Of a DNA stretch of 64,000 bases, positions 32,560 to 50,258 are shown in pieces. Numbering within the stretch: position 1 is the first letter of the stretch; each line of letters begins with the position of its first letter. The notes under the pieces are model-generated. The model was not told the origin of the DNA. It saw only the letters and a program-made list of their open reading frames with translations, and did no database searches. The stretch lies in NCBI RefSeq assembly GCF_044647545.1, contig NZ_CP172818.1; one strand, 5' to 3'. The stretch comes from Escherichia coli. Lineage in GTDB: Bacteria; Pseudomonadota; Gammaproteobacteria; Enterobacterales; Enterobacteriaceae. The position numbers were made by a program, and so were the translations under genes.

Positions 32560-33132
32560 TTGACACTGTCATCGCAACATTATCTGGTGATCACTGCGTT
32601 GGGTGCCGATCGCCCTGGAATAGTGAACACCATCACCCGTCATGTCAGTAGTTGCGGCTGTAATATTGAAGACAGTCGCCTGGCGATGCTGGGAGAAGAG
32701 TTCACGTTTATCATGCTGCTTTCCGGTTCATGGAATGCCATTACTCTGATTGAATCAACGTTACCGTTGAAAGGTGCCGAACTGGATCTTTTAATCGTGA
32801 TGAAGCGCACGACGGCGCGTCCGCGTCCGCCAATGCCAGCATCTGTCTGGGTTCAGGTCGATGTGGCAGACTCCCCGCATTTAATTGAACGCTTCACAGC
32901 ACTTTTCGACGCGCATCATATGAACATTGCGGAGCTGGTGTCGCGCACGCAACCTGCTGAAAATGAACGGGCTGCGCAGTTGCATATTCAGATAACTGCC
33001 CACAGCCCCGCATCTGCGGACGCAGCAAATATTGAGCAAGCGTTCAAAGCCCTATGTACAGAACTCAATGCACAAGGCAGTATTAACGTCGTCAATTATT
33101 CCCAACATGATGAACAGGATGGAGTTAAGTAA
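32560..33132 (+). CDS. gcvR: glycine cleavage system transcriptional repressor GcvR
   Basis: TTG at 32560 gives 190 aa (M)TLSSQHYLVITALGADRPG..., ACT-domain protein; track ORF starts at an upstream ATG. Confidence 0.8.
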   Translation: MTLSSQHYLVITALGADRPGIVNTITRHVSSCGCNIEDSRLAMLGEEFTFIMLLSGSWNAITLIESTLPLKGAELDLLIVMKRTTARPRPPMPASVWVQVDVADSPHLIERFTALFDAHHMNIAELVSRTQPAENERAAQLHIQITAHSPASADAANIEQAFKALCTELNAQGSINVVNYSQHDEQDGVK

Positions 33133-33602
33133 TGAATCCACTGAAAGCCGGTGATATCGCACCGAAATTTAGCTTGCCGGATCAAGACGGAGAACAAGTT
33201 AATTTGACCGACTTCCAGGGACAGCGTGTTCTGGTTTATTTCTACCCGAAAGCCATGACCCCCGGCTGTACCGTACAGGCCTGCGGCTTACGCGATAACA
33301 TGGATGAGTTGAAAAAAGCGGGCGTTGATGTGCTGGGTATCAGCACCGATAAACCCGAAAAACTCTCCCGTTTTGCGGAAAAAGAGCTGCTTAACTTTAC
33401 GCTCCTGTCTGATGAGGACCACCAGGTGTGCGAACAATTCGGCGTCTGGGGTGAAAAGTCCTTCATGGGCAAAACCTACGATGGTATTCATCGCATCAGC
33501 TTCCTGATTGACGCTGATGGCAAAATCGAACATGTTTTTGACGATTTCAAAACCAGCAATCACCACGACGTTGTGCTGAACTGGCTGAAAGAACACGCCT
33601 GA
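33132..33602 (+). CDS. bcp: thiol peroxidase Bcp (peroxiredoxin)
   Basis: 156-aa ORF with peroxidatic motif PKAMTPGCT. Confidence 0.95.
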   Translation: MNPLKAGDIAPKFSLPDQDGEQVNLTDFQGQRVLVYFYPKAMTPGCTVQACGLRDNMDELKKAGVDVLGISTDKPEKLSRFAEKELLNFTLLSDEDHQVCEQFGVWGEKSFMGKTYDGIHRISFLIDADGKIEHVFDDFKTSNHHDVVLNWLKEHA

Positions 33603-33656
33603 TTACTTTGCTCCATTCCGTGCTGGCTGCGCTTGCGGTCAGCACACCTCACTTCT

Positions 33657-33672
33657 CGTGATCAAGATCACA
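33657..33672. promoter_or_regulatory. CRP/FNR-class palindrome upstream of hyf promoter
   Basis: cGTGATCaagaTCACA: perfect GTGA-N6-TCAC core, 14-bp perfect inverted repeat gtgatcaagatcac. Confidence 0.4.
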
Positions 33673-33797
33673 TTCTCGCTTTCCCCTGCGACACGGGTGT
33701 CGAATCCATTTATTGCTGAACGTTAATGACCATCATTTTTGTACCGTTCAGAATCCAGTTAACACATAAATTATTGAATATATTAAATTAATCAGAC

Positions 33798-33814
33798 TGG
33801 CATCCTTTATGCAA
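33798..33814 (+). promoter_or_regulatory. sigma54 (-24/-12) promoter of the hyf operon
   Basis: TGGCATC-N4-ATGCA with GG and GC 12 nt apart; about 40 bp upstream of hyfA ATG, which has an AAGGAG SD. Confidence 0.6.
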
Positions 33815-33854
33815 TATGAAATGCAATGTTTCATATCATTTTCAAGGAGCCGAC

Positions 33855-34472
33855 ATGAACCGCTTTGTGGTGGCCGAACCACTGTGGTGTACAGGATGTA
33901 ATACCTGTCTCGCTGCCTGTTCGGACGTGCATAAAACGCAAGGTTTACAGCAACACCCGCGCCTGGCCCTGGCGAAGACGTCAACACTCACTGCCCCTGT
34001 CGTGTGTCATCACTGTGAGGAAGCCCCTTGCCTGCAGGTCTGCCCGGTCAATGCCATCTCCCAGAGGGACGATGCGATCCAACTCAACGAAAGCCTCTGT
34101 ATTGGCTGCAAGCTTTGCGCCGTGGTCTGCCCATTTGGCGCAATCAGCGCTTCAGGAAGCCGTCCGGTGAATGCCCCTGCGCAATATGTTTTTCAGGCTG
34201 AGGGCTCACTCAAAGACGGCGAAGAAAACGCGCCAACCCAACATGCTTTGCTGCGCTGGGAACCGGGTGTCCAGACCGTCGCGGTGAAATGCGACCTGTG
34301 TGATTTCTTGCCAGAAGGTCCGGCCTGCGTTCGCGCTTGTCCGAATCAGGCGTTACGGCTGATCACCGACGATAGCCTGCAACGTCAGATGAAAGAAAAA
34401 CAGCGCCTTGCCGCAAGCTGGTTTGCCAATGGCGGGGAGGATCCCCTTTCCCTCACTCAGGAGCAACGCTAA
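33855..34472 (+). CDS. hyfA: hydrogenase-4 ferredoxin-type subunit HyfA
   Basis: ATG at 33855 gives 205 aa MNRFVVAEPLWCTGCNTC...; four Cys clusters. Confidence 0.9.
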   Translation: MNRFVVAEPLWCTGCNTCLAACSDVHKTQGLQQHPRLALAKTSTLTAPVVCHHCEEAPCLQVCPVNAISQRDDAIQLNESLCIGCKLCAVVCPFGAISASGSRPVNAPAQYVFQAEGSLKDGEENAPTQHALLRWEPGVQTVAVKCDLCDFLPEGPACVRACPNQALRLITDDSLQRQMKEKQRLAASWFANGGEDPLSLTQEQR

Positions 34473-36490
34473 TGGATGCCCTGCAATTATTAACCTGGTC
34501 GCTGATCCTCTATCTGTTTGCCAGTCTGGCTTCGCTATTTTTACTCGGTCTGGACAGACTGGCTATTAAGCTTTCCGGCATCACATCGCTGGTGGGCGGC
34601 GTGATTGGCATCATCAGCGGAATTACGCAATTACATGCAGGCGTAACTTTAGCCGCCCGTTTTGCCACACCTTTTGAATTTGCCGATTTAACCCTGCGAA
34701 TGGATAGCCTCTCGGCATTTATGGTGCTGGTTATCTCCTTGCTGGTGGTGGTTTGTTCGCTCTATTCATTGACTTATATGCGCGAATACGAGGGTAAAGG
34801 CGCGGCGGCGATGGGCTTCTTTATGAATCTTTTCATCGCATCGATGGTTGCCCTGCTGGTGATGGACAACGCTTTTTGGTTCATCGTGCTGTTTGAAATG
34901 ATGTCGCTGTCTTCCTGGTTTCTGGTCATTGCCAGGCAGGATAAAACGTCGATCAACGCTGGCATGCTCTACTTTTTTATCGCCCACGCCGGATCGGTGC
35001 TGATTATGATCGCCTTCTTGCTGATGGGGCGCGAAAGCGGCAGCCTCGATTTTGCCAGTTTCCGCACGCTTTCACTTTCTCCGGGGCTGGCGTCGGCGGT
35101 GTTCCTGCTGGCCTTTTTCGGTTTTGGCGCGAAAGCCGGGATGATGCCGTTGCACAGCTGGTTGCCGCGCGCTCACCCTGCCGCACCATCGCACGCTTCG
35201 GCGTTGATGTCTGGCGTAATGGTCAAAATCGGTATTTTCGGCATCCTTAAAGTAGCGATGGATCTGCTGGCGCAAACGGATTTGCCGCTGTGGTGGGGCA
35301 TTCTGGTGATGGCGATCGGCGCAATCTCCGCGCTCCTGGGCGTGCTATATGCGCTGGCGGAACAGGATATCAAACGGCTGCTGGCCTGGAGTACCGTCGA
35401 AAACGTCGGCATTATTTTGCTGGCGGTCGGTGTGGCGATGGTCGGTCTGTCACTGCACGACCCGCTGCTCACCGTTGTTGGACTGCTCGGCGCGCTGTTT
35501 CATCTGCTCAACCATGCGCTGTTCAAAGGGCTGCTGTTTCTCGGCGCGGGCGCAATTATTTCGCGTTTGCATACCCACGACATGGAAAAAATGGGGGCAC
35601 TGGCGAAACGGATGCCGTGGACAGCCGCAGCATGCCTGATTGGTTGCCTCGCGATATCAGCCATTCCTCCGCTGAATGGTTTTATCAGCGAATGGTACAC
35701 CTGGCAGTCGCTGTTCTCACTAAGTCGTGTGGAAGCCGTAGCGCTACAACTTGCGGGTCCTATTGCTATGGTGATGCTGGCAGTCACTGGTGGGCTGGCA
35801 GTAATGTGCTTCGTCAAAATGTACGGCATTACTTTCTGTGGTGCGCCGCGCAGTACACACGCTGAAGAGGCACAGGACGTGCCAAATACGATGATCGTCG
35901 CCATGCTACTGCTCGCGGCACTCTGCGTATTCATTGCGCTTAGTGCCAGTTGGCTGGCACCGAAGATAATGCACATTGCCCATGCGTTTACCAATACCCC
36001 TCCCGTCACTGTCGCCAGCGGAATAGCACTTGTACCCGGCACGTTTCATACACGGGTCACTCCCTCATTACTGTTGCTGTTACTACTGGCGATGCCTTTG
36101 CTGCCTGGCCTTTACTGGCTGTGGTGTCGTTCGCGCCGCGCAGCGTTTCGTCGCACAGGAGATGCCTGGGCATGCGGCTACGGCTGGGATAATGCGATGG
36201 CCCCGTCAGGCAATGGCGTGATGCAGCCGCTGCGTGTGGTCTTTTGTGCGCTATTTCGTCTACGACAACAGCTCGACCCTACGCTGAGGCTGAACAAAGG
36301 TCTTGCGCACGTCACCGCCAGGGCTCAGAGCACAGAACCCTTCTGGGATGAGCGGGTGATCCGCCCCATCGTGAGCGCCACCCAACGGCTGGCCAAAGAA
36401 ATACAGCATCTGCAAAGCGGCGACTTTCGTCTCTATTGCCTGTATGTGGTCGCCGCACTGGTTGTGCTGCTAATCGCTATTGCCGTCTAA
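34472..36490 (+). CDS. hyfB: hydrogenase-4 membrane subunit HyfB (NuoL/Mrp antiporter-like)
   Basis: 672-aa polytopic membrane ORF. Confidence 0.93.
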   Translation: MDALQLLTWSLILYLFASLASLFLLGLDRLAIKLSGITSLVGGVIGIISGITQLHAGVTLAARFATPFEFADLTLRMDSLSAFMVLVISLLVVVCSLYSLTYMREYEGKGAAAMGFFMNLFIASMVALLVMDNAFWFIVLFEMMSLSSWFLVIARQDKTSINAGMLYFFIAHAGSVLIMIAFLLMGRESGSLDFASFRTLSLSPGLASAVFLLAFFGFGAKAGMMPLHSWLPRAHPAAPSHASALMSGVMVKIGIFGILKVAMDLLAQTDLPLWWGILVMAIGAISALLGVLYALAEQDIKRLLAWSTVENVGIILLAVGVAMVGLSLHDPLLTVVGLLGALFHLLNHALFKGLLFLGAGAIISRLHTHDMEKMGALAKRMPWTAAACLIGCLAISAIPPLNGFISEWYTWQSLFSLSRVEAVALQLAGPIAMVMLAVTGGLAVMCFVKMYGITFCGAPRSTHAEEAQDVPNTMIVAMLLLAALCVFIALSASWLAPKIMHIAHAFTNTPPVTVASGIALVPGTFHTRVTPSLLLLLLLAMPLLPGLYWLWCRSRRAAFRRTGDAWACGYGWDNAMAPSGNGVMQPLRVVFCALFRLRQQLDPTLRLNKGLAHVTARAQSTEPFWDERVIRPIVSATQRLAKEIQHLQSGDFRLYCLYVVAALVVLLIAIAV

Positions 36491-36500
36491 GGAAATCACC

Positions 36501-37448
36501 ATGAGACAAACTCTTTGCGACGGATATCTGATCATTTTTGCGTTAGCACAGGCCGTGATTCTGCTGGCGCTAACCCCGCTTTTTACGGGGATTTCCCGGC
36601 AGATACGCGCGCGTATGCACTCCCGTCGCGGACCGGGGATCTGGCAGGATTATCGCGATATCCACAAACTGTTTAAACGCCAGGAAGTTGCGCCGACATC
36701 TTCAGGTCTGATGTTCCGCCTGATGCCGTGGGTATTAATCAGCAGCATGCTGGTGCTGGCGATGGCCCTACCACTATTTATTACTGTTTCCCCTTTTGCG
36801 GGCGGCGGCGATCTGATCACCCTTATCTATCTTCTTGCCCTATTTCGTTTTTTCTTTGCTCTTTCCGGGCTGGATACCGGAAGCCCCTTTGCGGGAATCG
36901 GTGCCAGTCGCGAGTTAACGCTCGGCATTCTGGTCGAACCCATGCTCATTCTCTCACTGCTGGTATTGGCGCTGATAGCGGATTCCACGCATATCGAGAT
37001 GATCAGCAAGACGCTGGCGACGGGCTGGAACTCGCCGCTAACCACCGTACTGGCGTTACTGGCCTGTGGTTTTGCCTGCTTCATTGAGATGGGAAAAATT
37101 CCCTTTGATGTTGCTGAAGCAGAACAGGAATTACAGGAAGGCCCGCTGACCGAATATTCCGGTGCCGGGCTGGCGCTGGCGAAGTTGGGGCTGGGGCTGA
37201 AACAGGTCGTGATGGCATCACTGTTTGTGGCCCTGTTTCTGCCCTTTGGGCGCGCGCAAGAGCTTTCTCTCACCTGCCTGCTGACTTCACTTGTCGTTAC
37301 GCTGCTCAAGGTTTTGCTGATTTTTGTTCTGGCCTCTATCGCAGAAAACACGCTGGCACGCGGGCGATTTTTACTCATTCACCATGTGACCTGGCTTGGC
37401 TTCAGCCTTGCTGCGCTTGCCTGGGTCTTCTGGTTAACCGGTCTGTAA
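36501..37448 (+). CDS. hyfC: hydrogenase-4 membrane subunit HyfC (NuoH-like)
   Basis: ATG at 36501 gives 315 aa MRQTLCDGYLIIF... Confidence 0.9.
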   Translation: MRQTLCDGYLIIFALAQAVILLALTPLFTGISRQIRARMHSRRGPGIWQDYRDIHKLFKRQEVAPTSSGLMFRLMPWVLISSMLVLAMALPLFITVSPFAGGGDLITLIYLLALFRFFFALSGLDTGSPFAGIGASRELTLGILVEPMLILSLLVLALIADSTHIEMISKTLATGWNSPLTTVLALLACGFACFIEMGKIPFDVAEAEQELQEGPLTEYSGAGLALAKLGLGLKQVVMASLFVALFLPFGRAQELSLTCLLTSLVVTLLKVLLIFVLASIAENTLARGRFLLIHHVTWLGFSLAALAWVFWLTGL

Positions 37449-37464
37449 GGAGCACTAACGGAAT

Positions 37465-38904
37465 ATGGAAAATCTTGCTCTGACGACGTTATTGCTGCCT
37501 TTTATCGGCGCACTGGTCGTTTCGTTTTCGCCACAACGTCGGGCCGCCGAATGGGGGGTTTTGTTCGCCGCGCTGACCACGCTGTGCATGTTGTCACTGA
37601 TCTCCGCGTTTTATCAGGCCGATAAAGTTGCCGTCACGTTGACGTTGGTCAACGTGGGGGATGTGGCGTTGTTTGGCCTGGTCATTGATCGCGTGAGTAC
37701 GCTGATTCTGTTTGTGGTGGTGTTCCTCGGTTTGCTGGTCACGATCTACTCCACGGGTTATCTGACGGATAAAAATCGCGAACACCTGCATAACGGCACG
37801 AATCGTTATTACGCATTTTTGCTGGTTTTTATCGGCGCGATGGCGGGACTGGTACTCTCCTCGACGCTGCTCGGTCAGTTGTTGTTTTTTGAAATTACGG
37901 GCGGCTGCTCCTGGGCGTTGATCAGTTATTACCAGAGCGATAAAGCGCAGCGTTCAGCACTAAAAGCGTTACTTATCACTCATATCGGTTCGCTGGGGTT
38001 GTATCTTGCCGCCGCCACGCTGTTTTTGCAGACCGGAACGTTTGCGCTTAGCGCGATGAGCGAGTTACACGGCGACGCACGTTATCTGGTTTATGGCGGC
38101 ATCCTGTTTGCCGCGTGGGGGAAATCGGCCCAGCTACCGATGCAAGCGTGGCTACCGGATGCAATGGAAGCGCCAACACCGATCAGCGCCTATCTCCACG
38201 CCGCATCGATGGTGAAAGTGGGCGTTTACATTTTTGCCCGTGCCATTATCGACGGCGGCAATATCCCGCATGTGATTGGCGGCGTTGGCATGGTTATGGC
38301 ACTGGTCACCATTCTTTACGGCTTCCTGATGTATTTGCCACAGCAGGATATGAAGCGGTTGCTGGCCTGGTCGACCATCACTCAACTTGGCTGGATGTTT
38401 TTCGGCTTGTCGCTCTCCATCTTCGGCTCGCGGCTGGCGCTGGAGGGCAGCATCGCCTACATCGTCAACCACGCGTTCGCTAAAAGCCTATTTTTCCTTG
38501 TAGCAGGTGCGCTGAGTTACAGCTGCGGCACGCGCTTGTTGCCGCGTCTGCGTGGCGTATTGCACACCCTGCCGTTGCCAGGCGTGGGTTTCTGCGTAGC
38601 CGCGCTGGCGATTACTGGCGTACCGCCGTTCAACGGCTTCTTCAGTAAATTCCCGCTGTTTGCCGCCGGTTTTTCGTTGTCAGTGGAGTACTGGATCCTG
38701 CTGCCCGCCATGATTCTGCTGATGTTTGAATCGGTCGCCAGTTTCGCCTGGTTTATTCGCTGGTTTGGTCGCGTCGTGCCTGGCAAACCGAGCGAGGCCG
38801 TCGCCGATGCCGCACCGCTGCCAGGATCAATGCGCCTGGTGTTGATTGTACTGATTGTGATGTCGCTGATTTCCAGCGTAATCGCCGCGACCTGGTTGCA
38901 GTAA
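37465..38904 (+). CDS. hyfD: hydrogenase-4 membrane subunit HyfD (antiporter-like)
   Basis: 479-aa polytopic membrane ORF. Confidence 0.93.
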   Translation: MENLALTTLLLPFIGALVVSFSPQRRAAEWGVLFAALTTLCMLSLISAFYQADKVAVTLTLVNVGDVALFGLVIDRVSTLILFVVVFLGLLVTIYSTGYLTDKNREHLHNGTNRYYAFLLVFIGAMAGLVLSSTLLGQLLFFEITGGCSWALISYYQSDKAQRSALKALLITHIGSLGLYLAAATLFLQTGTFALSAMSELHGDARYLVYGGILFAAWGKSAQLPMQAWLPDAMEAPTPISAYLHAASMVKVGVYIFARAIIDGGNIPHVIGGVGMVMALVTILYGFLMYLPQQDMKRLLAWSTITQLGWMFFGLSLSIFGSRLALEGSIAYIVNHAFAKSLFFLVAGALSYSCGTRLLPRLRGVLHTLPLPGVGFCVAALAITGVPPFNGFFSKFPLFAAGFSLSVEYWILLPAMILLMFESVASFAWFIRWFGRVVPGKPSEAVADAAPLPGSMRLVLIVLIVMSLISSVIAATWLQ

Positions 38905-38915
38905 GGAGATGATGA

Positions 38916-39566
38916 ATGACCGGTTCTATGATCGTAAATAATCTGGCGGGACTGATGATGCTGACATCGCTGTTTGTGATTAGCGTCAAAAGCTATCGCC
39001 TGTCATGCGGATTTTACGCCTGCCAGTCGCTGGTGCTGGTGTCTATTTTCGCCACCCTCTCGTGCCTGTTCGTCGCAGAGCAACTGCTGATCTGGTCCGC
39101 CAGCGCCTTTATCACCAAAGTGCTGCTGGTACCGTTAATCATGATTTACGCTGCACGAAATATTCCCCAGAACATCCCGGAAAAAGCGTTATTCGGTCCG
39201 GCTATGATGGCATTGCTCGCGGCATTAATTGTCCTGCTTTGCGCATTTGTCGTTCAGCCCGTGAAGCTACCGATGGCTACCGGGCTGAAACCGGCGCTGG
39301 CGGTGGCGTTAGGTCATTTTCTGCTTGGCCTGCTGTGCATTGTCAGCCAGCGCAATATCCTGCGGCAAATTTTTGGTTACTGCCTGATGGAAAACGGCTC
39401 CCATCTGGTGCTGGCGCTTCTTGCCTGGCGTGCACCGGAACTGGTGGAAATTGGTATCGCTACCGACGCCATCTTCGCCGTCATTGTGATGGTGTTACTG
39501 GCAAGAAAAATATGGCGTACCCACGGCACGCTGGACGTGAACAACTTGACCGCGCTGAAGGGATAA
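38916..39566 (+). CDS. hyfE: hydrogenase-4 membrane subunit HyfE
   Basis: 216-aa membrane ORF. Confidence 0.92.
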
Positions 39567-39570
39567 TGAG

Positions 39571-41151
39571 ATGAGTTATTCTGTGATGTTCGCTTTACTC
39601 CTGCTCACGCCGCTGCTTTTTTCGCTGCTCTGTTTTGCCTGCCGGAAATGGGGACACTCTGCGACTCGCACGGTGACAGTACTACATAGCTTAGGGATCA
39701 CACTGCTGCTGATTCTGACACTGTGGGTGGTCCAAACTGCCGCTGATGCGGGAGAAATATTCGCTGCGGGACTGTGGCTTCATATTGATGGTCTGGGCGG
39801 TTTGTTCCTCGCCATTCTTGGTGTGATTGGCTTTCTCACCGGTGTTTACTCGATTGGCTACATGCGTCATGAAGTGGCACACGGCGAGCTTTCACCCGTT
39901 ACGCTGTGCGATTACTACGGTTTCTTCCATCTGTTTTTGTTCACCATGCTGCTGGTTGTTACCAGCAATAACCTGATTGTGATGTGGGCGGCGATCGAAG
40001 CCACCACCTTAAGCTCGGCGTTTCTGGTAGGCATTTACGGTCAGCGTTCATCGCTGGAAGCTGCATGGAAGTACATCATTATTTGTACTGTTGGTGTCGC
40101 TTTTGGTCTGTTCGGTACCGTGCTGGTATACGCCAACGCCGCCAGCGTTATGCCGCAGGCAGAAATGGCGATATTCTGGAGCGAGGTTCTTAAGCAATCG
40201 TCCTTGCTTGACCCAACATTAATGCTGTTGGCCTTTGTGTTTGTGCTAATTGGCTTTGGCACCAAAACCGGGCTATTCCCCATGCACGCCTGGCTGCCAG
40301 ATGCTCACAGTGAAGCGCCGAGTCCGGTCAGCGCCCTGCTCTCCGCCGTATTGCTGAACTGCGCGCTATTGGTGCTGATTCGCTATTACATCATTATTTG
40401 CCAGGCCATCGGCAGCGATTTCCCCAACCGGTTGTTGCTCATCTTCGGCATGTTGTCGGTTGCCGTGGCGGCATTTTTCATTCTGGTACAGCGGGACATT
40501 AAGCGTCTGCTGGCGTACTCCAGCGTGGAGAACATGGGACTGGTCGCGGTGGCGTTAGGCATTGGCGGGCCGCTGGGAATTTTTGCCGCGCTGCTGCACA
40601 CCTTAAACCACAGTCTGGCAAAAACGCTGCTGTTCTGCGGTTCCGGCAATGTACTGCTCAAGTACGGCACGCGCGATCTCAACGTCGTCTGCGGAATGCT
40701 CAAAATCATGCCATTTACCGCCGTGCTGTTTGGCGGCGGTGCGCTGGCGCTGGCCGGGATGCCGCCCTTCAACATTTTTCTTAGCGAATTTATGACCGTT
40801 ACCGCCGGACTGGCGCGTAATCACCTGCTGATTATCGTCCTGCTGTTATTGCTGTTAACGCTGGTGCTGGCGGGCCTGGTACGGATGGCTGCGCGGGTGT
40901 TAATGGCGAAACCGCCGCAGGCCGTTAACCGGGGTGAACTTGGCTGGTTGACCACCTCGCCAATGGTGATTCTGCTGGTCATGATGCTGGCGATGGGAAC
41001 GCATATTCCACAACCTGTCATCAGGATCCTGGCGGGCGCTTCCACTATAGTCCTCTCAGGGACGCACGACCTGCCTGCACAACGTAGCACCTGGCATGAT
41101 TTTTTGCCTTCAGGCACCGCATCTGTTTCGGAGAAACACAGTGAACGTTAA
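39571..41151 (+). CDS. hyfF: hydrogenase-4 membrane subunit HyfF (antiporter-like)
   Basis: 526-aa polytopic membrane ORF. Confidence 0.93.
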
Positions 41152-42856
41152 TTCATCGTCAAATCGTGGCGAAGCGATTCTCGCCGCCCTGAAAACGCAG
41201 TTCCCCGGCGCGGTGCTGGATGAAGAGCGACAAACGCCTGAACAGGTCACCATTACGGTGAAAATCAATCTGCTGCCTGACGTTGTGCATTATCTTTATT
41301 ATCAACATGATGGCTGGCTTCCGGTCCTGTTTGGCAACGACGAGCGGACACTTAACGGTCATTACGCGGTTTATTATGCCCTTTCTATGGAAGGGGCCGA
41401 AAAATGCTGGATCGTGGTGAAGGCACTGGTCGATGCCGACAGTCGGGAGTTTCCGTCAGTCACACCGCGCGTCCCTGCCGCGGTCTGGGGCGAGCGAGAA
41501 ATTCGCGATATGTACGGGTTGATTCCGGTTGGCCAGCCGGATCAGCGTCGGCTGGTGTTGCCCGATGACTGGCCGGAAGATATGCATCCGCTGCGCAAAG
41601 ACGCGATGGATTATCGACTGCGCCCAGAACCGACGACTGATACCGAAACGTATCCGTTTATCAACGAGGGCAACAGCGATGCGCGGGTGATCCCTGTCGG
41701 CCCGCTGCATATCACCTCCGATGAACCAGGTCACTTCCGCTTGTTTGTGGATGGCGAGCAAATTGTCGATGCTGATTACCGCCTGTTTTATGTCCATCGC
41801 GGCATGGAGAAACTGGCAGAAACGCGGATGGGCTACAACGAAGTGACCTTCTTATCCGACCGCGTGTGTGGGATTTGCGGTTTTGCCCACAGTGTGGCCT
41901 ATACCAACTCGGTTGAAAATGCACTGGGGATTGAGGTGCCGCAACGAGCGCATACTATTCGCTCGATTCTGCTGGAAGTCGAACGGCTGCATAGTCATTT
42001 GCTCAACCTTGGCCTCTCCTGCCATTTTGTTGGTTTTGATACCGGCTTTATGCAATTTTTCCGCGTGCGGGAAAAGTCGATGACGATGGCGGAATTGCTG
42101 ACCGGGTCGCGTAAAACCTACGGTCTGAATCTGATTGGTGGTGTTCGCCGCGATATTCTCAAAGAGCAACGTCTGCAAACGCTGAAACTGGTGCGCGAGA
42201 TGCGCGCCGACGTGTCGGAGCTGGTAGAGATGTTGCTTGCCACGCCGAATATGGAACAACGCACTCAGGGCATTGGCATTCTCGACCGACAAATCGCCCG
42301 TGATTATAGCCCCGTAGGGCCGCTGATCCGCGGCAGTGGCTTTGCCCGTGATTTGCGCTTTGATCACCCCTACGCCGACTACGGCAATATTCCCAAAACG
42401 CTGTTTACCTTTACCGGCGGCGATGTCTTCTCCCGCGTGATGGTCCGTGTCAAAGAGACGTTTGATTCGCTGGCAATGCTGGAATTTGCCCTCGACAACA
42501 TGCCAGATACCCCACTGCTGACCGAAGGCTTTAGCTATAAACCTCACGCATTCGCGCTGGGCTTTGTTGAAGCGCCACGTGGTGAAGACGTGCACTGGAG
42601 CATGCTCGGTGATAACCAAAAATTGTTCCGCTGGCGCTGTCGTGCCGCCACCTACGCCAACTGGCCAGTGCTGCGTTACATGCTGCGCGGCAATACCGTT
42701 TCTGACGCACCGCTGATTATCGGTAGCCTTGATCCCTGTTACTCCTGTACCGACCGTGTGACGCTGGTTGATGTGCGCAAGCGCCAGTCAAAAACCGTGC
42801 CGTATAAAGAGATCGAACGCTACGGCATTGATCGTAACCGTTCGCCGCTGAAGTAA
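41141..42856 (+). CDS. hyfG: hydrogenase-4 [NiFe] large subunit HyfG
   Basis: N-terminal [11 protein letters not shown] and C-terminal DPCYSCTDR Ni-Fe ligand motifs; start placed at GTG 41141 ([13 protein letters not shown]...), exact start uncertain. Confidence 0.85.
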
Positions 42857-42865
42857 GGACAGAAA

Positions 42866-43411
42866 ATGCTGAAGTTACTGAAAACTATTATGCGCGCCGG
42901 AACCGCGACGGTGAAATATCCCTTCGCGCCACTGGAGGTCAGCCCAGGCTTTCGCGGGAAACCGGACCTGATGCCCAGCCAATGTATTGCCTGCGGTGCC
43001 TGCGCCTGTGCTTGTCCGGCAAATGCGCTGACTATCCAGACCGACGACCAACAAAATACGCGCACCTGGCAGCTCTATCTGGGGCGTTGTATTTACTGCG
43101 GACGTTGTGAAGAAGTGTGCCCGACCAGAGCCATTCAGCTTACCAATAACTTTGAACTGACCGTCACCAATAAAGCCGATCTCTATACCCGCGCGACGTT
43201 TCATCTACAACGTTGCAGTCGTTGCGAACGCCCATTTGCCCCGCAAAAAACCGTCGCACTGGCTGCAGAACTGTTGGCACAGCAACAAAATGCGCCACAA
43301 AACCGCGAAATGTTGTGGGCGCAAGCGAGCATCTGCCCGGAATGCAAACAACGCGCGACGCTGATCAACGACGATACAGATGTACCGCTGGTGGCTAAGG
43401 AGCAGCTATGA
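42866..43411 (+). CDS. hyfH: hydrogenase-4 2x[4Fe-4S] ferredoxin subunit HyfH
   Basis: 181-aa ORF with [12 protein letters not shown] and [12 protein letters not shown]. Confidence 0.93.
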
Positions 43412-44166
43412 GTCCAGTGCTTACGCAACATGTCAGCCAGCCCATAACGCTGGACGAGCAAACGCAAAAGATGAAGCAGCATTTGCTACAGGATATCCGT
43501 CGCTCGGCTTACGTTTATCGCGTCGATTGCGGCGGCTGCAACGCCTGCGAAATCGAAATTTTTGCCGCCATCACACCCGTATTCGACGCAGAACGTTTTG
43601 GCATTAAGGTTGTTTCATCACCGCGTCACGCCGATATTTTGTTATTTACTGGCGCAGTCACCCGGGCGATGCGTATGCCTGCACTTCGGGCATATGAGTC
43701 TGCCCCCGATCATAAAATCTGTGTTTCCTACGGCGCGTGCGGTGTCGGCGGCGGTATTTTCCACGATCTTTACAGCGTCTGGGGCGGCAGCGACACCATT
43801 GTCCCCATTGATGTTTGGATCCCCGGCTGCCCGCCAACACCGGCCGCCACCATTCACGGTTTCGCCGTGGCGCTCGGTTTGCTGCAACAGAAGATTCACG
43901 CGGTGGATTATCGCGATCCCACCGGGGTGACCATGCAACCGCTGTGGCCGCAGATCCCGCCATCACAGCGTATCGCCATTGAGCGAGAAGCGAGGCGGCT
44001 GGCGGGCTATCGTCAAGGGCGAGAAATTTGCGATCGGCTCCTGCGCCATTTAAGCGACGATCCTACAGGAAATCGGGTTAACACCTGGTTGCGCGAAGCT
44101 GACGATCCACGTCTCAATAGTATCGTTCAGCAACTCTTTCGCGTTCTCCGGGGGTTACATGGCTGA
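43408..44166 (+). CDS. hyfI: hydrogenase-4 small subunit HyfI (NuoB-like)
   Basis: 252-aa [13 protein letters not shown] and GCPP motifs; 4-nt overlap with hyfH. Confidence 0.93.
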
Positions 44167-44572
44167 GGAGTGCAGGGAAATTGTTTTCTGGACGCTGCGA
44201 AAAAAATTTATCGCCAGTAGCGACGAGATGCCGGAACACAGCTCCCAGGTAATGTATTACTCGTTGGCTATCGGTCATCACGTTGGCGTGATTGATTGTT
44301 TGAATGTCGCCTTCCGCTGCCCACAGACGGAATACGAAGATTGGCTTGCACAGGTCGAAGAGGAGCAAGCCCGACGTAAGATGCTGGGGGTGATGACTTT
44401 TGGTGAGATTGTTATTGACGCCAGCCACACCGCCCTGTTGACCCGGGCATTCGCGCCACTGGCAGATGACGCGACGTCGGCGTGGCAGGCGCGTAGCATT
44501 CAATTCATTCATCTGTTGGATGAAATTGTGCAGGAACCGGTCATCTATCTGATGGCCAGAAAAATTGCGTGA
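44159..44572 (+). CDS. hyfJ: hydrogenase-4 accessory protein HyfJ (HycH-like)
   Basis: 137-aa ORF, 8-nt overlap with hyfI. Confidence 0.9.
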
Positions 44573-44601
44573 GAAGGATTTCTCATTAATAAGGACTGTT
44601 G

Positions 44602-46614
44602 ATGGCTATGTCAGACGAGGCGATGTTTGCCCCGCCGCAAGGAATAACAATTGAAGCGGTAAACGGAATGCTCGCGGAGCGGTTAGCACAGAAACACGGC
44701 AAGGCGTCTTTATTACGCGCCTTCATCCCGCTGCCGCCGCCGTTCAGCCCGGTACAACTTATTGAACTGCATGTTCTCAAAAGCAACTTCTATTACCGCT
44801 ACCATGATGATGGCAGCGATGTGACGGCAACAACAGAGTATCAGGGTGAGATGGTCGATTATTCGCGCCACGCCGTCCTTCTCGGCAGTAGTGGAATGGC
44901 GGAGCTACGCTTTATTCGCACCCACGGCAGTCGTTTTACTCCCCAGGATTGCACACTGTTTAACTGGCTGGCACACATAATCACTCCGGTTCTGCAATCA
45001 TGGCTCAATGATGAAGAACAGCAGGTGGCGCTGCGTTTGCTGGAGAAAGATCGCGATCATCATCGGGTACTGGTGGATATCACTAATGCAGTGTTGTCAC
45101 ATCTTGATCTCGACGATCTGATCGCTGACGTCGCTCGTGAGATCCATCATTTTTTCGGTCTGGCTTCAGTCAGTATGGTACTGGGCGATCATCGAAAGAA
45201 CGAGAAGTTCAGCCTGTGGTGCAGCGATCTTTCTGCCTCACATTGTGCGTGTCTGCCACGCTGTATGCCTGGCGAAAGTGTATTGCTGACACAAACGCTA
45301 CAAACCCGACAACCGACCTTGACGCACTGTGCAGACGATCTGTTTCTCTGGCAACGCGACCCGTTATTACACTTACTTGCATCTAACGGCTGCGAATCTG
45401 CGCTCCTTATACCGCTCACCTTTGGCAACCATACACCGGGTGCATTGTTGCTGGCGCATACCTCTTCCACTCTCTTTAGTGAGGAAAACTGCCAGCTACT
45501 ACAACATATTGCCGATCGCATCGCTATTGCCGTTGGCAATGCCGATGCCTGGCGCAGCATGACCGATTTGCAGGAAAGCTTGCAGCAAGAAAACCACCAG
45601 CTTAGCGAGCAGCTCCTTTCGAATCTGGGCGTCGGTGACATTATCTATCAAAGCCAGGCAATGGAAGACCTGCTCCAGCAGGTAGATATTGTGGCGAAGA
45701 GCGACAGTACGGTGTTGATTTGTGGTGAAACCGGAACCGGCAAAGAGGTGATCGCCAGAGCGATCCATCAACTTAGCCCACGACGCGACAAGCCACTGGT
45801 CAAAATCAACTGCGCTGCCATCCCCGCCAGTCTTCTGGAAAGTGAGTTATTCGGTCATGACAAAGGGGCATTTACTGGTGCGATTAATACCCATCGTGGT
45901 CGTTTTGAAATTGCCGATGGCGGCACGTTGTTTCTCGATGAAATTGGCGATCTGCCGTTAGAACTTCAGCCTAAACTGCTGCGCGTATTGCAGGAACGGG
46001 AGATTGAGCGTCTCGGCGGGAGTAGAACGATCCCGGTAAATGTCAGAGTCATTGCCGCCACCAACCGTGATTTGTGGCAAATGGTTGAAGATCGCCAGTT
46101 TCGCAGCGATCTCTTTTATCGCCTGAATGTCTTCCCACTGGAACTGCCGCCACTGCGCGACCGTCCGGAAGATATCCCTCTTTTAGCAAAGCATTTCACG
46201 CAAAAAATGGCGCGCCATATGAATCGCGCAATTGACGCCATCCCGACCGAGGCGCTACGCCAGTTGATGTCGTGGGACTGGCCGGGCAACGTGCGCGAGC
46301 TGGAAAACGTGATTGAGCGAGCGGTACTACTGACTCGCGGTAACAGTCTGAATTTACATCTTAATGTCCGACAAAGCCGTTTACTGCCGACGCTAAATGA
46401 AGATTCAGCGCTTCGCAGTTCAATGGCGCAGTTACTGCACCCGACGACGCCAGAGAATGACGAAGAAGAACGTCAGCGCATTGTTCAGGTATTGCGAGAA
46501 ACCAATGGCATTGTTGCCGGGCCCCGTGGCGCGGCGACACGATTAGGGATGAAGCGCACCACGCTGCTGTCACGAATGCAGCGTCTGGGGATCTCGGTTC
46601 GCGAGGTGTTGTAA
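44602..46614 (+). CDS. hyfR: sigma54-dependent transcriptional activator HyfR (FhlA-like)
   Basis: 670 aa from ATG 44602; AAA+ sigma54-activator domain ([14 protein letters not shown]) and C-terminal HTH. Confidence 0.93.
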
Positions 46615-46635
46615 TCTGTTTTTGCAGGAGTATGC

Positions 46636-47484
46636 ATGAGAAACAAACTCTCTTTCGACTTGCAGTTGAGCGCCAGAAAAGCGGCAATCGCTGAACGGAT
46701 TGCCGCCCATAAAATTACCCGCAGCAAAGTGTCGGTCTTTTTAATGGCGATGTCCGCAGGCGTGTTTATGGCGATCGGATTTACTTTTTACCTTACCGTT
46801 ATCGCCGATGCCCCGTCTTCACAGGCATTAACCCATCTGGTGGGCGGCCTTTGCTTTACACTCGGCTTTATTTTGCTGGCGGTTTGCGGCACCAGCCTGT
46901 TCACCTCGTCGGTAATGACGGTGATGGCAAAAAGTCGGGGCGTTATTAGCTGGCGAACATGGCTGATTAATGCACTTCTGGTGGCCTGCGGTAATCTGGC
47001 AGGTATTGCCTGTTTCAGTTTGTTAATCTGGTTTTCCGGGCTGGTGATGAGTGAAAACGCGATGTGGGGAGTCGCGGTTTTACACTGCGCCGAGGGCAAA
47101 ATGCATCATACATTTACTGAATCAGTCAGCCTCGGCATTATGTGCAATGTGATGGTTTGCCTGGCGCTGTGGATGAGTTATTGCGGACGTTCGTTATGCG
47201 ACAAAATCGTCGCCATGATTTTGCCCATCACCCTGTTTGTCGCCAGTGGCTTTGAGCACTGTATCGCCAATTTATTTGTGATTCCGTTCGCCATTGCCAT
47301 TCGCCATTTCGCCCCTACCTCCTTCTGGCAACTGGCGCACAGTAGCGCAGACCATTTTCCGGCACTGACGGTCAGCCATTTTATTACCGCCAATCTGCTC
47401 CCGGTGATGCTGGGTAATATTATCGGCGGTGCAGTGCTGGTGAGTATTTGTTATCGGGCTATTTATTTACGTCAGGAACCCTAA
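46636..47484 (+). CDS. focB: formate channel FocB (FNT family)
   Basis: 282-aa membrane ORF, last gene of hyf cluster. Confidence 0.93.
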   Translation: MRNKLSFDLQLSARKAAIAERIAAHKITRSKVSVFLMAMSAGVFMAIGFTFYLTVIADAPSSQALTHLVGGLCFTLGFILLAVCGTSLFTSSVMTVMAKSRGVISWRTWLINALLVACGNLAGIACFSLLIWFSGLVMSENAMWGVAVLHCAEGKMHHTFTESVSLGIMCNVMVCLALWMSYCGRSLCDKIVAMILPITLFVASGFEHCIANLFVIPFAIAIRHFAPTSFWQLAHSSADHFPALTVSHFITANLLPVMLGNIIGGAVLVSICYRAIYLRQEP

Positions 47485-47516
47485 AAATCAGCCCGGCGAA
47501 ACAGTTCGTCGGGCTG
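47484..47516. terminator. bidirectional stem-loop terminator between focB and perM
   Basis: agcccggcg ...loop... cgtcgggct (9-bp stem, one G-T); T5 follows on the minus strand. Confidence 0.5.
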
Positions 47517-47520
47517 AAGA

Positions 47521-48582
47521 TTATTCTTGCGCGATTTGCCCATCGGGCCAGGCGTGAATCACGGCTTTGATCAGCGTCGCCAATGGAATGGCGAAGAATA
47601 CGCCCCAGAATCCCCACAAACCACCGAAGATCACCACCGATAAAATAATCACCAGCGGATGCAGGTTAACCGCTTCGGAGAACAACACCGGCACTAGCAG
47701 GTTGCCGTCCAGCGCCTGAATGATCAGATACACCGCGAAGCAGCTCCAGAATTCCGTGCCAGCACCAAACTGGAATAGCGCCACGCCAATCACCGGAATG
47801 GTCACCACAAATGCGCCAATGTACGGAATAAGAACCGAGAAGCCGACCAGCACCGCCAGCAGCAGCGAATAGTTCAGCCCGAAGAGTAAGAACCCCAGCC
47901 AGGTGGCGATCCCCACCACGATCATCTCCAGCACTTTGCCGCGGATATAGTTGGTGATTTGTTGATTCATCTCCTTCCACACCTGTCCTGCCAGTCCGCG
48001 GTTACGCGGTAGCACCCGACGAACGGCGTTCAGCATCTGCTCTTTGTCTTTCAGCAGGAAGAAGACCATCAATGGCACCAGCACCAGATAGACAGCTATG
48101 GTGAGCAAACCGACCAGCGAGGCGAGGGAAATTTTCACCACCGAATCGCCCATGGTCAGCATCCGACTGCGCATATTTTCGGCCATTGCATCAATAATGC
48201 CCGCGTCCATTAACGCCGGATAGCGGCGCGGCAACGTGGCGGCAAAGTCAGAAAGCTTATTGAGCATCCCCGGCATATCGCGAATTAAGTAGATGCCCTG
48301 CTGCCAGGCGATAGGCAATACCACGAACGCCATCAGTAGCAATATACCGACGAAAACCACCAATACAATCGACGTCGCCCAGCGGCGGGAGCAGCCAATA
48401 GATTGCAGGCGCACGGTTGGCCATTCCAGCAAATAGGCCAGCACAATAGCCACCAGCAACGGAGCAAGCAGGCCACTAAAGAAAAAGATAATGCCAAATC
48501 CGGCAACTAAAATAACCAGCAAGGCAATCGCTTCCGGGTCGCTAAAACGGCGGCGATACCATTGCATCAACATTTCGAGCAT
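47521..48582 (-). CDS. perM: AI-2E family permease PerM (formerly yfgO)
   Basis: 353-aa polytopic membrane ORF. Confidence 0.9.
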   Translation of the reverse strand: MLEMLMQWYRRRFSDPEAIALLVILVAGFGIIFFFSGLLAPLLVAIVLAYLLEWPTVRLQSIGCSRRWATSIVLVVFVGILLLMAFVVLPIAWQQGIYLIRDMPGMLNKLSDFAATLPRRYPALMDAGIIDAMAENMRSRMLTMGDSVVKISLASLVGLLTIAVYLVLVPLMVFFLLKDKEQMLNAVRRVLPRNRGLAGQVWKEMNQQITNYIRGKVLEMIVVGIATWLGFLLFGLNYSLLLAVLVGFSVLIPYIGAFVVTIPVIGVALFQFGAGTEFWSCFAVYLIIQALDGNLLVPVLFSEAVNLHPLVIILSVVIFGGLWGFWGVFFAIPLATLIKAVIHAWPDGQIAQE

Positions 48583-48735
48583 AAAGACCTTCCCTGAACC
48601 TCAAGAGCGGGATTGCGATCCGCAATTGTATCGAAATGTCACAAAAAAGACTTCGCTTTTTATGACGGATTCAGGAAACTGAAAAGTCATTTGAGTGGGC
48701 TAATCTTCGCCGTTACACTCAAAGGCGGCGCGGTG

Positions 48736-48763
48736 GGAACGATATTTCACAGTATCGGTCAAA
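48736..48763 (+). promoter_or_regulatory. sigmaE-type promoter for bepA
   Basis: GGAACga -N16- TCAAA (consensus GGAACTT-N16-TCAAA), about 30 nt upstream of bepA ATG. Confidence 0.5.
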
Positions 48764-48794
48764 TGACTATCTTCAGAAATACAGGATAGAGGTT

Positions 48795-50258
48795 ATGTTC
48801 AGGCAGTTGAAAAAAAACCTGGTTGCAACCCTCATTGCTGCTATGACCATTGGTCAGGTAGCCCCGGCGTTTGCCGACAGCGCAGACACCTTGCCGGATA
48901 TGGGAACCTCCGCAGGAAGCACGCTTTCCATTGGTCAGGAAATGCAGATGGGCGACTATTATGTCCGCCAGCTACGCGGCAGCGCGCCGTTAATTAATGA
49001 CCCGCTGTTAACGCAATATATTAATTCGCTGGGTATGCGTCTGGTTTCGCATGCCAATTCGGTTAAGACACCGTTTCATTTCTTTCTGATCAACAACGAC
49101 GAAATTAACGCCTTTGCTTTCTTTGGCGGCAACGTGGTGCTGCACTCTGCCCTGTTCCGTTATTCCGATAACGAAAGTCAACTGGCTTCAGTTATGGCGC
49201 ACGAAATCTCCCACGTCACCCAACGTCACCTGGCGCGAGCGATGGAAGATCAACAGCGCAGCGCGCCGCTGACCTGGGTCGGCGCGTTAGGTTCTATTTT
49301 ACTGGCGATGGCCAGTCCGCAGGCGGGGATGGCAGCGCTGACCGGTACACTGGCGGGAACGCGCCAGGGGATGATCAGTTTCACCCAGCAAAATGAACAG
49401 GAAGCGGATCGCATTGGTATTCAGGTGCTGCAACGCTCAGGATTCGATCCGCAGGCGATGCCGACCTTCCTCGAAAAATTGCTCGATCAGGCGCGTTACT
49501 CCTCGCGTCCGCCGGAAATTTTATTGACTCACCCGTTGCCGGAAAGTCGTCTGGCAGATGCCCGCAACCGTGCTAATCAGATGCGCCCGATGGTGGTGCA
49601 GTCGTCGGAGGATTTCTATCTGGCGAAAGCGCGCACACTGGGGATGTATAATTCCGGACGTAATCAGCTCACCAGTGATTTGCTGGATGAATGGGCGAAA
49701 GGAAACGTTCGTCAGCAACGAGCGGCGCAATATGGTCGTGCTCTACAGGCGATGGAAGCCAATAAATACGATGAGGCGCGTAAAACGCTGCAACCGTTAC
49801 TGGCGGCAGAACCTGGTAACGCATGGTATCTCGATCTGGCTACCGATATCGATCTTGGGCAAAACAAAGCCAATGAGGCAATCAATCGCCTGAAAAATGC
49901 CCGTGATTTGCGTACCAATCCGGTGTTGCAGCTCAACCTGGCGAACGCTTATCTGCAAGGCGGTCAACCACAAGAAGCGGCCAATATTCTGAATCGCTAC
50001 ACTTTTAATAATAAAGATGACAGCAACGGCTGGGATTTACTGGCACAGGCGGAAGCCGCGCTAAATAACCGCGATCAGGAACTGGCTGCGCGAGCAGAAG
50101 GTTATGCGCTCGCCGGGCGACTCGATCAGGCCATTTCCTTGTTGAGTAGCGCCAGTTCGCAGGTGAAATTAGGCAGCCTGCAACAAGCGCGTTACGATGC
50201 GCGCATCGACCAGTTGCGCCAGCTGCAGGAACGCTTTAAGCCTTATACCAAGATGTAA
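48795..50258 (+). CDS. bepA: periplasmic beta-barrel assembly-enhancing protease BepA (formerly yfgC), M48 peptidase + TPR
   Basis: 487-aa ORF, signal peptide, HEISH zinc motif. Confidence 0.93.

Follow-up and report, generated by a model that had tools for sequence, protein, structure and literature searches.

The 64,000-nucleotide stretch of Escherichia coli DNA analysed here (contig NZ_CP172818.1; hereafter the window) contains a hyf operon, hyfABCDEFGHIJ-hyfR-focB, at positions 33855-47484, comprising twelve intact, co-oriented genes with all frames open. We interpret this locus, with a probability of about 85%, as the hydrogenase-4 (Hyd-4) operon of a non-K-12 lineage, encoding the hydrogenase and membrane module of formate hydrogenlyase-2 (FHL-2), the large subunit of which, HyfG, is most likely matured by the protease HycI acting in trans. 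The hyf locus and its missing protease gene are already textbook knowledge, and the initial annotation rightly presented the system as known and not novel, the same points having been made by Finney et al. 2020 (PMC7654741). What deserves attention is neither the locus nor the missing protease gene, but the allele of hyfG. The twelve genes are as follows, with the evidence for each assignment in brackets.

33855..34472, + strand: hyfA, 205 aa, multi-[4Fe-4S] ferredoxin-like protein, HycB homologue (Pfam Fer4 families; 52% identity to HycB; RefSeq annotation of identical sequence)
34472..36490, + strand: hyfB, 672 aa, antiporter-like membrane subunit, HycC homologue (Pfam Proton_antipo_M E=8e-54; HycC tblastn E=9e-101)
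36501..37448, + strand: hyfC, 315 aa, ND1/HycD-like membrane subunit (Pfam NADHdh E=2e-58; 52% identity to HycD)
37465..38904, + strand: hyfD, 479 aa, antiporter-like, without hyc counterpart (Pfam Proton_antipo_M E=3e-54)
38916..39566, + strand: hyfE, 216 aa, ND4L-like membrane subunit, without hyc counterpart (Pfam Oxidored_q2 E=8e-18)
39571..41151, + strand: hyfF, 526 aa, antiporter-like, without hyc counterpart (Pfam Proton_antipo_M E=1e-55)
41141..42856, + strand: hyfG, 571-aa [NiFe]-hydrogenase large-subunit precursor, full-length allele (72% identity to K-12 HycE over 568 aa)
42866..43411, + strand: hyfH, 181 aa, 2x[4Fe-4S] subunit, HycF homologue (Pfam Fer4_7; 45% identity to HycF)
43408..44166, + strand: hyfI, 252-aa hydrogenase small subunit, HycG/NuoB-like (Pfam Oxidored_q6; 62% identity to HycG)
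44159..44572, + strand: hyfJ, 137-aa HycH-family assembly chaperone, the last hyc-like gene (Pfam HycH E=3e-56; 48% identity to HycH)
44602..46614, + strand: hyfR, 670-aa sigma-54-dependent activator (GAF + AAA+ + HTH), FhlA paralogue (Pfam Sigma54_activat E=5e-75, GAF, HTH_8; 51% identity to FhlA)
46636..47484, + strand: focB, 282-aa formate channel of the FNT family (Pfam Form_Nir_trans E=3e-64)

The Pfam family of every product fits its hyf or focB assignment, and the hallmarks of hyf (FHL-2) are all present, including the membrane subunits HyfD, HyfE and HyfF, the sigma-54 activator HyfR, the FNT channel FocB and the chromosomal site, which is flanked by gcvR-bcp on one side and the convergent yfgO on the other, as in K-12. 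The extra membrane subunits beyond the hyc-like core are two Proton_antipo_M proteins and one Oxidored_q2 protein. Spacings between consecutive genes from hyfA to focB are -1, 10, 16, 11, 4, -11, 9, -4, -8, 29 and 21 bases, in keeping with the tightly packed or overlapping arrangement first described for the locus. Eleven of the twelve genes start with ATG and hyfG with GTG, with a recognisable ribosome-binding site before most of them, and the lengths of the open reading frames (ORFs) equal those of K-12, hyfG excepted. At the sequence level the locus matches the annotated hyfA-focB stretch of several E. coli chromosomes at 100%, including those of ECONIH1 and IMT16316, the latter of which we take to be sequence type ST648, phylogroup F; identity to most other E. 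coli ranges from 95 to 99%.

The Pfam architecture of HyfG comprises Complex1_30kDa (NuoC-like, residues 39-155), Complex1_49kDa (NuoD-like) and NiFeSe_Hases, and its closest solved structure is HycE in the cryo-electron microscopy model of formate hydrogenlyase (7Z0S chain E, E=1e-291). Three features of the sequence bear on its processing.

41861..41893, + strand: first [NiFe] ligand motif (RxCGxCxxxH type), HyfG 241-251 (translation; identical in HycE)
42731..42757, + strand: second [NiFe] ligand motif, DPCYSCTDR, HyfG 531-539, with predicted cleavage after R539 (translation; identical in HycE)
42758..42853, + strand: 32-residue HyfG C-terminal tail after DPCYSCTDR (22/32 residues identical to the HycE assembly peptide)

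Judged by these characters, HyfG is a precursor-type group 4a [NiFe]-hydrogenase large subunit of the HycE/HyfG type. Both ligand motifs are thus present as initially annotated; the first had been placed near the N-terminus, which is accurate relative to the NuoD-like domain but not for the whole protein, where it begins at residue 241 because the NuoC-like domain precedes the NuoD-like domain, as in HycE. The C-terminal extension, put at about 32 residues, is exactly that long and colinear with the HycE assembly peptide, itself 32 residues, which HycI removes by cutting after Arg537 (PMC7654741). Around the cleavage site the P4-P1 residues (CTDR) are identical and only P1' differs, being Val in HyfG and Met in HycE. 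In an AlphaFold2 model of the window HyfG (mean predicted local distance difference test, pLDDT, 88.9), long stretches of low confidence are confined to the inter-domain linker and the tail, the latter with a pLDDT of 41-64 as expected for a flexible extension.

Searches of the whole 64-kb window by tblastn with K-12 HycI (about 156 aa), HypA-E and HycA gave no homologue (best HycI E=2.7; HyaD and HybD were not separate queries), while all Hyc structural homologues, and the paralogue of FhlA, were recovered in the same run. No credible Pfam family was found in the eight largest alternative-frame or antisense ORFs of the locus, the sole match being spurious (E=0.0076), and the intergenic gaps measure at most 29 bases. 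HyfJ is the only dedicated assembly factor encoded in the locus. The reported absence of protease and hyp genes therefore stands, and it agrees with the published account, which finds no gene for a HycI homologue or any other protease in E. coli hyf and assigns HyfG an assembly peptide of 32 residues (Finney et al. 2020, PMC7654741). Among 5426 complete E. coli genomes, which form the basis of all population counts given here, hycI was present in 5425 (coverage at least 80%), so the genome carrying the window almost certainly supplies hycI in trans. This near-universal presence of hycI upholds the further proposal that activity depends on genes elsewhere.

The hyfG deletion and the apparent decay of hyf across E. 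coli

Alignment of the window HyfG (571 aa) with its K-12 counterpart (555 aa) revealed a single in-frame gap, corresponding to HyfG 386-401.

42296..42343, + strand: 48-base segment encoding HyfG 386-401, present in the window and deleted in K-12 (alignments)

The segment reads GCCCGTGATTATAGCCC...GGCTTT and is bounded by a 10-bp direct repeat, GCCCGTGATT, copies of which are located at 42296-42305 and 42344-42353. A deletion between two such copies bears the hallmark of slippage or of a microhomology-mediated event. A matching segment is carried by HycE, and its presence there and in all intact representatives of the family (see below) identifies full-length hyfG, on comparative grounds, as the ancestral state. 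We found no mention of the polymorphism or of the 16-residue gap in the full-text literature, including Finney 2019 and 2020, Steinhilper 2022 and two Sawers papers, an earlier notice in subscription papers being possible.

A 108-bp probe over the deletion site matched 4292 genomes, 2179 of them at full length, like the window, and a 40-bp probe for the K-12 junction matched exactly the remaining 2113 of the 4292 hyf-positive complete genomes. The deletion is thus carried by ~49% of hyf-positive genomes and 39% of all complete genomes, among them MG1655, BW2952 (MC4100 lineage), XL1-Blue, E. coli B, O111:H8 and isolates from many hosts. A sequencing artefact or a peculiarity of laboratory strains is ruled out, the identical junction occurring in 2113 complete, independent genomes of varied host origin. 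In a small neighbour-joining tree of sampled loci, built on 2871 aligned bases, the deletion alleles group together with one full-length allele nested among them, and the window allele lies on a distant branch, 47-56 differences from the deletion clade. Between one ancestral deletion event and recurrent deletion at the 10-bp repeats, this tree mostly favours one event.

The operon as a whole was absent from 1128 of the 5426 genomes (21%), in which a clean bcp-yfgO junction was found with ~98 bp between the two genes; 1127 genomes were counted as missing the entire hyf-focB block with this spacing. The empty site suggests loss rather than gain of hyf, and there are hints that the block was lost by microhomology deletion. 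The empty site retains sequence alignable to the first ~120 bp of the bcp-hyfA spacer (window 33603-33730), and a GCTGAA motif occurs at both edges of the hyf block (window 33603-33730 and 47485-47520). Further RefSeq-flagged lesions in hyfF, hyfH or hyfI were present in seven of 12 sampled hyf loci, including internal stops in hyfF and hyfI of H10407, a 1-bp hyfI deletion common to four strains, frameshifts of hyfF in two and, in AF58, the loss of 162 bp from hyfH; the window copy is intact. A 6-bp in-frame indel in hyfH (540 vs 546 nt; aligned columns 2230-2235) was observed in one strain with full-length hyfG and in one with the deletion, which suggests recombination or recurrence within the operon. 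Taken across the species, hyf appears to be a gene cluster caught mid-decay in many lineages, absent from 21% of complete genomes, carrying the hyfG deletion in 39% and frameshifted in others.

This pattern raises the possibility that hyf in E. coli, the window copy included, is a decaying relic that is poorly or not transcribed, yields no active enzyme and is heading for loss, with the missing protease as one more sign of decay. The absence of the operon from 1128 genomes, the deletion in 2113 and the damage in seven of 12 sampled loci all favour such a view, as does the lack of Hyd-4 activity in engineered K-12 strains (PMC7654741). Set against it, all twelve genes of the window are intact, and the ratio of nonsynonymous to synonymous polymorphism (pN/pS) is 0.066 among full-length hyfG alleles versus 0.219 among deletion alleles (about threefold, on small, non-independent counts and with low divergence inflating the ratio). 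The former value indicates purifying selection, apparently strong, on full-length hyfG, and the 16 codons of the segment show only synonymous differences across seven full-length alleles. Loss of hycI from hyf is moreover common to all four genera with both operons, which suggests economy and not decay (PMC7654741), and recent papers describe FHL-2-dependent effects in stationary-phase E. coli (PMC11841067). On balance we consider it somewhat unlikely that the window copy is such a relic.

The deleted HyfG segment and hydrogenase-4 in K-12

The segment missing from K-12 includes a conserved VGPxxR[AG]SG stretch, which reads VGPLIRGSG in the window HyfG and contains R397. An exhaustive HMMER search yielded 150 representatives, 123 of which span the deletion site, and the longer motif [VT]G[PV]xxR[AG]SGxxxDxR is kept in all but five of these, each visibly truncated or out of frame, so that no intact representative is without the segment. 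An alignment of 52 diverse homologues (29-71% identity to HyfG) has 13 invariant columns, of which two, G393 and R397, fall within the deleted segment, where G400 is near-invariant. HyfG R397 aligns with R395 of HycE, a residue of the conserved proton pathway leading from the active-site canopy to bulk, R478/D529/H284/E437/R395 (Steinhilper et al. 2022, PMC9474812); the complex I match for that arginine is NDUFS2 R297 (PMC9474812). In the AlphaFold2 model of the window HyfG the segment has a pLDDT of 98 and forms two short helices at 383-389 and 394-397. When K-12 HyfG was modelled from the same alignment these helices were lost and the junction had a pLDDT of 76, with the overall fold kept (mean pLDDT 88.2). 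The two models differ in a local drop of confidence only, which is weak evidence and insufficient by itself for loss of function. The window HyfG keeps, unlike that of K-12, an ordered, universally conserved 386-401 segment with the proton-pathway arginine R397.

Nearly all E. coli Hyd-4 experiments have used K-12, whose HyfG lacks these 16 residues kept in every intact homologue. In the work of Finney et al. 2020, 15 K-12 strains were built in which the hyf promoter was replaced by Phyc or PT5 (T5), the HycE tail was grafted onto HyfG, or these changes were combined, and some of the strains were also given extra HycI or HyfK from plasmids (PMC7654741). No H2 was produced by any engineered strain without Hyd-3, and hence no Hyd-4-dependent H2, an outcome that the authors ascribed to 'additional, unknown, biosynthetic problems' of E. 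coli Hyd-4 (PMC7654741). The initial suggestion, that the lack of a protease gene accords with the largely silent state of hyf in K-12, is contradicted by these results, since Hyd-4 stayed inactive despite the new promoters, the tail graft and the extra proteases, and HycI does activate Pectobacterium Hyd-4. As the engineered strains carry the deleted hyfG allele, their negative result says little about the window copy; more generally, the window is not K-12 and its hyfG allele differs, so K-12 phenotypes are not simply transferable to it.

Based on these observations, we tentatively propose that the 48-bp deletion may inactivate or cripple Hyd-4 and may be the 'unknown biosynthetic problem' of K-12, in which case the product of the window allele could be matured in trans by the Hyp proteins together with HycI and would potentially be active, and the dispute over FHL-2 would in part be an artefact of the reference strain. 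We put this forward as a possibility held with low confidence. It is a simple candidate for explaining why results obtained with E. coli Hyd-4 as well as FHL-2 over more than 25 years have been conflicting or negative.

The deletion could instead be functionally neutral, both alleles giving an equally active or equally inactive Hyd-4. It is in frame, about half of hyf-positive genomes have it and the overall fold is still predicted for the shortened protein. Several groups have also reported phenotypes that depend on hyf in derivatives of K-12, which bear the deletion (PMC7654741 refs 17-18; PMC11841067). Neutrality is harder to reconcile with two of 13 invariant columns and a near-invariant glycine lying in the segment, with the retention of the segment by every intact representative and with the place of HycE R395 in the conserved canopy proton pathway (PMC9474812). 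The local fall in pLDDT from 98 to 76 with the loss of two short helices, and the higher pN/pS of deletion alleles (on the small, non-independent counts noted above), point the same way. We therefore regard a neutral deletion as unlikely.

Expression and maturation of hydrogenase-4

Three candidate regulatory features flank the operon.

33798..33813, + strand: sigma-54-type -24/-12 promoter element TGGCATCCTTTATGCA, 42 bp upstream of the hyfA ATG
33689..33702, no strand assigned: perfect inverted repeat CGACACGGGTGTCG, candidate upstream activating site for FhlA/HyfR, located ~100 bp upstream of the -24/-12 element
47488..47517, + strand: stem-loop of 13 pairs between the convergent focB and yfgO, the strongest terminator-like site in the scan

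The pattern TGGCAYN5WTGCW has a single match in the 64-kb window, namely TGGCATCCTTTATGCA, with a chance expectation of 0.54, and a promoter scan found no sigma-70-like site upstream of hyfA. The CGACA/TGTCG half-sites of CGACACGGGTGTCG recur in the FhlA-controlled hycA-hypA and hycB-hycA regulatory regions of K-12, and we consider this repeat a candidate HyfR/FhlA binding site. A second inverted repeat, ATGAAATGCAATGTTTCAT, is located at 33817-33835, after the sigma-54 element and before the ribosome-binding site of hyfA, and could be a hairpin of the 5' untranslated region or a protein-binding site. The stem-loop at 47488-47517 is the likely operon terminator; an Rfam scan of 33000-48800 gave no matches. 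Some 16 kb upstream of hyf, a minus-strand ORF at 17736-18209 encodes a multi-[4Fe-4S] ferredoxin-like domain 39% identical to HycB (tblastn E=8e-38). From its map position we presume that this ORF is probably part of aegA.

Under the interpretation given at the outset, HyfR or FhlA would drive transcription from the sigma-54 promoter that lies upstream of hyfA, and the transcript would extend through all twelve genes to the terminator after focB. HyfG would be made as a precursor, receive its NiFe(CN)2CO cofactor from Hyp proteins encoded outside the operon, and then lose the 32-residue C-terminal peptide by a cut after Arg539. As no protease is encoded in the hyf operon, the cut would most likely be made by HycI from the hyc operon, and FdhF would likewise be supplied in trans. 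These expectations are consistent with published work on Pectobacterium, in which HyfK is required for Hyd-4 and is interchangeable with its E. coli relative, E. coli HycI rescuing a Pectobacterium hyfK mutant and HyfK rescuing an E. coli hycI mutant (PMC7654741). Four organisms are known to have hyc and hyf together, each with a single protease gene, located in hyc (PMC7654741).

Maturation of HyfG by HyaD or HybD, or without any cleavage, is very unlikely: some [NiFe]-hydrogenases are unprocessed and what the assembly peptide does is a matter of debate (PMC7654741), but the HyfG tail has the same length as that of HycE, is 69% identical to it and has identical P4-P1 residues, Pectobacterium Hyd-4 strictly needs a HycI-type protease for which E. 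coli HycI can substitute, and maturation proteases generally do not substitute for one another between hydrogenase groups.

Three points weigh against an active, HycI-matured enzyme in the window strain. Support for cleavage of E. coli HyfG by HycI is indirect, coming from the cross-complementation of HycI and HyfK. The H2-negative engineered K-12 strains (PMC7654741) leave the activity of any E. coli Hyd-4 unproven. Lastly, the locus is dispensable in the species, being absent from 1128 of 5426 genomes and damaged in many others, so that an intact reading frame is no guarantee of use. The gene content, both motifs, the tail, the missing protease gene, the species-wide occurrence of hycI and the hyfG polymorphism were observed directly; HycI cleavage of HyfG, use of the promoter and enzymatic activity are inferred.

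Comparison with known systems

The window operon shares a homologous core with E. coli hyc (hydrogenase-3/FHL-1, 7Z0S), the corresponding pairs being HycB/HyfA, HycC/HyfB, HycD/HyfC, HycE/HyfG, HycF/HyfH, HycG/HyfI and HycH/HyfJ. HycE and the window HyfG have the same ligand motifs and each ends in a 32-residue assembly peptide. The two operons differ after hycH/hyfJ, hyc having the hycI protease gene directly after hycH, at the operon end, whereas in hyf hyfJ is followed by hyfR and hycI is lacking. Furthermore, hyc adjoins hypABCDE-fhlA, while hyf instead has its own activator, hyfR, and formate channel, focB, and adds the HyfD/E/F membrane subunits, which are not in hyc.

The hyfABCDEFGHIJK-hyfR cluster of Pectobacterium atrosepticum encodes, like E. 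coli hyf, a Hyf-type group 4a hydrogenase with an enlarged membrane arm, the large subunit of which has an assembly peptide needing a HycI-type protease (PMC7654741, PMC7384014). The Pectobacterium cluster brings a protease of its own, HyfK, with 74% identity to HycI, and its enzyme is demonstrably active, whereas the E. coli operon is without hyfK and the activity of its product is unproven.

Also closely related is the hyf operon of E. coli K-12, hyfABCDEFGHIJR-focB (b2481-b2492), reportedly described by Andrews et al. in 1997, which has the same twelve genes in the same order at the same bcp...yfgO site, with gene lengths the same except for hyfG. The K-12 proteins are 95-99% identical to those of the window, the DNA difference is roughly 2% and neither copy has a protease gene. 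The K-12 hyfG encodes 555 aa and lacks the 48 bp (HyfG 386-401) that the window keeps, and strains like the source of the window are consequently the right material for establishing whether E. coli FHL-2 works and conserves energy.

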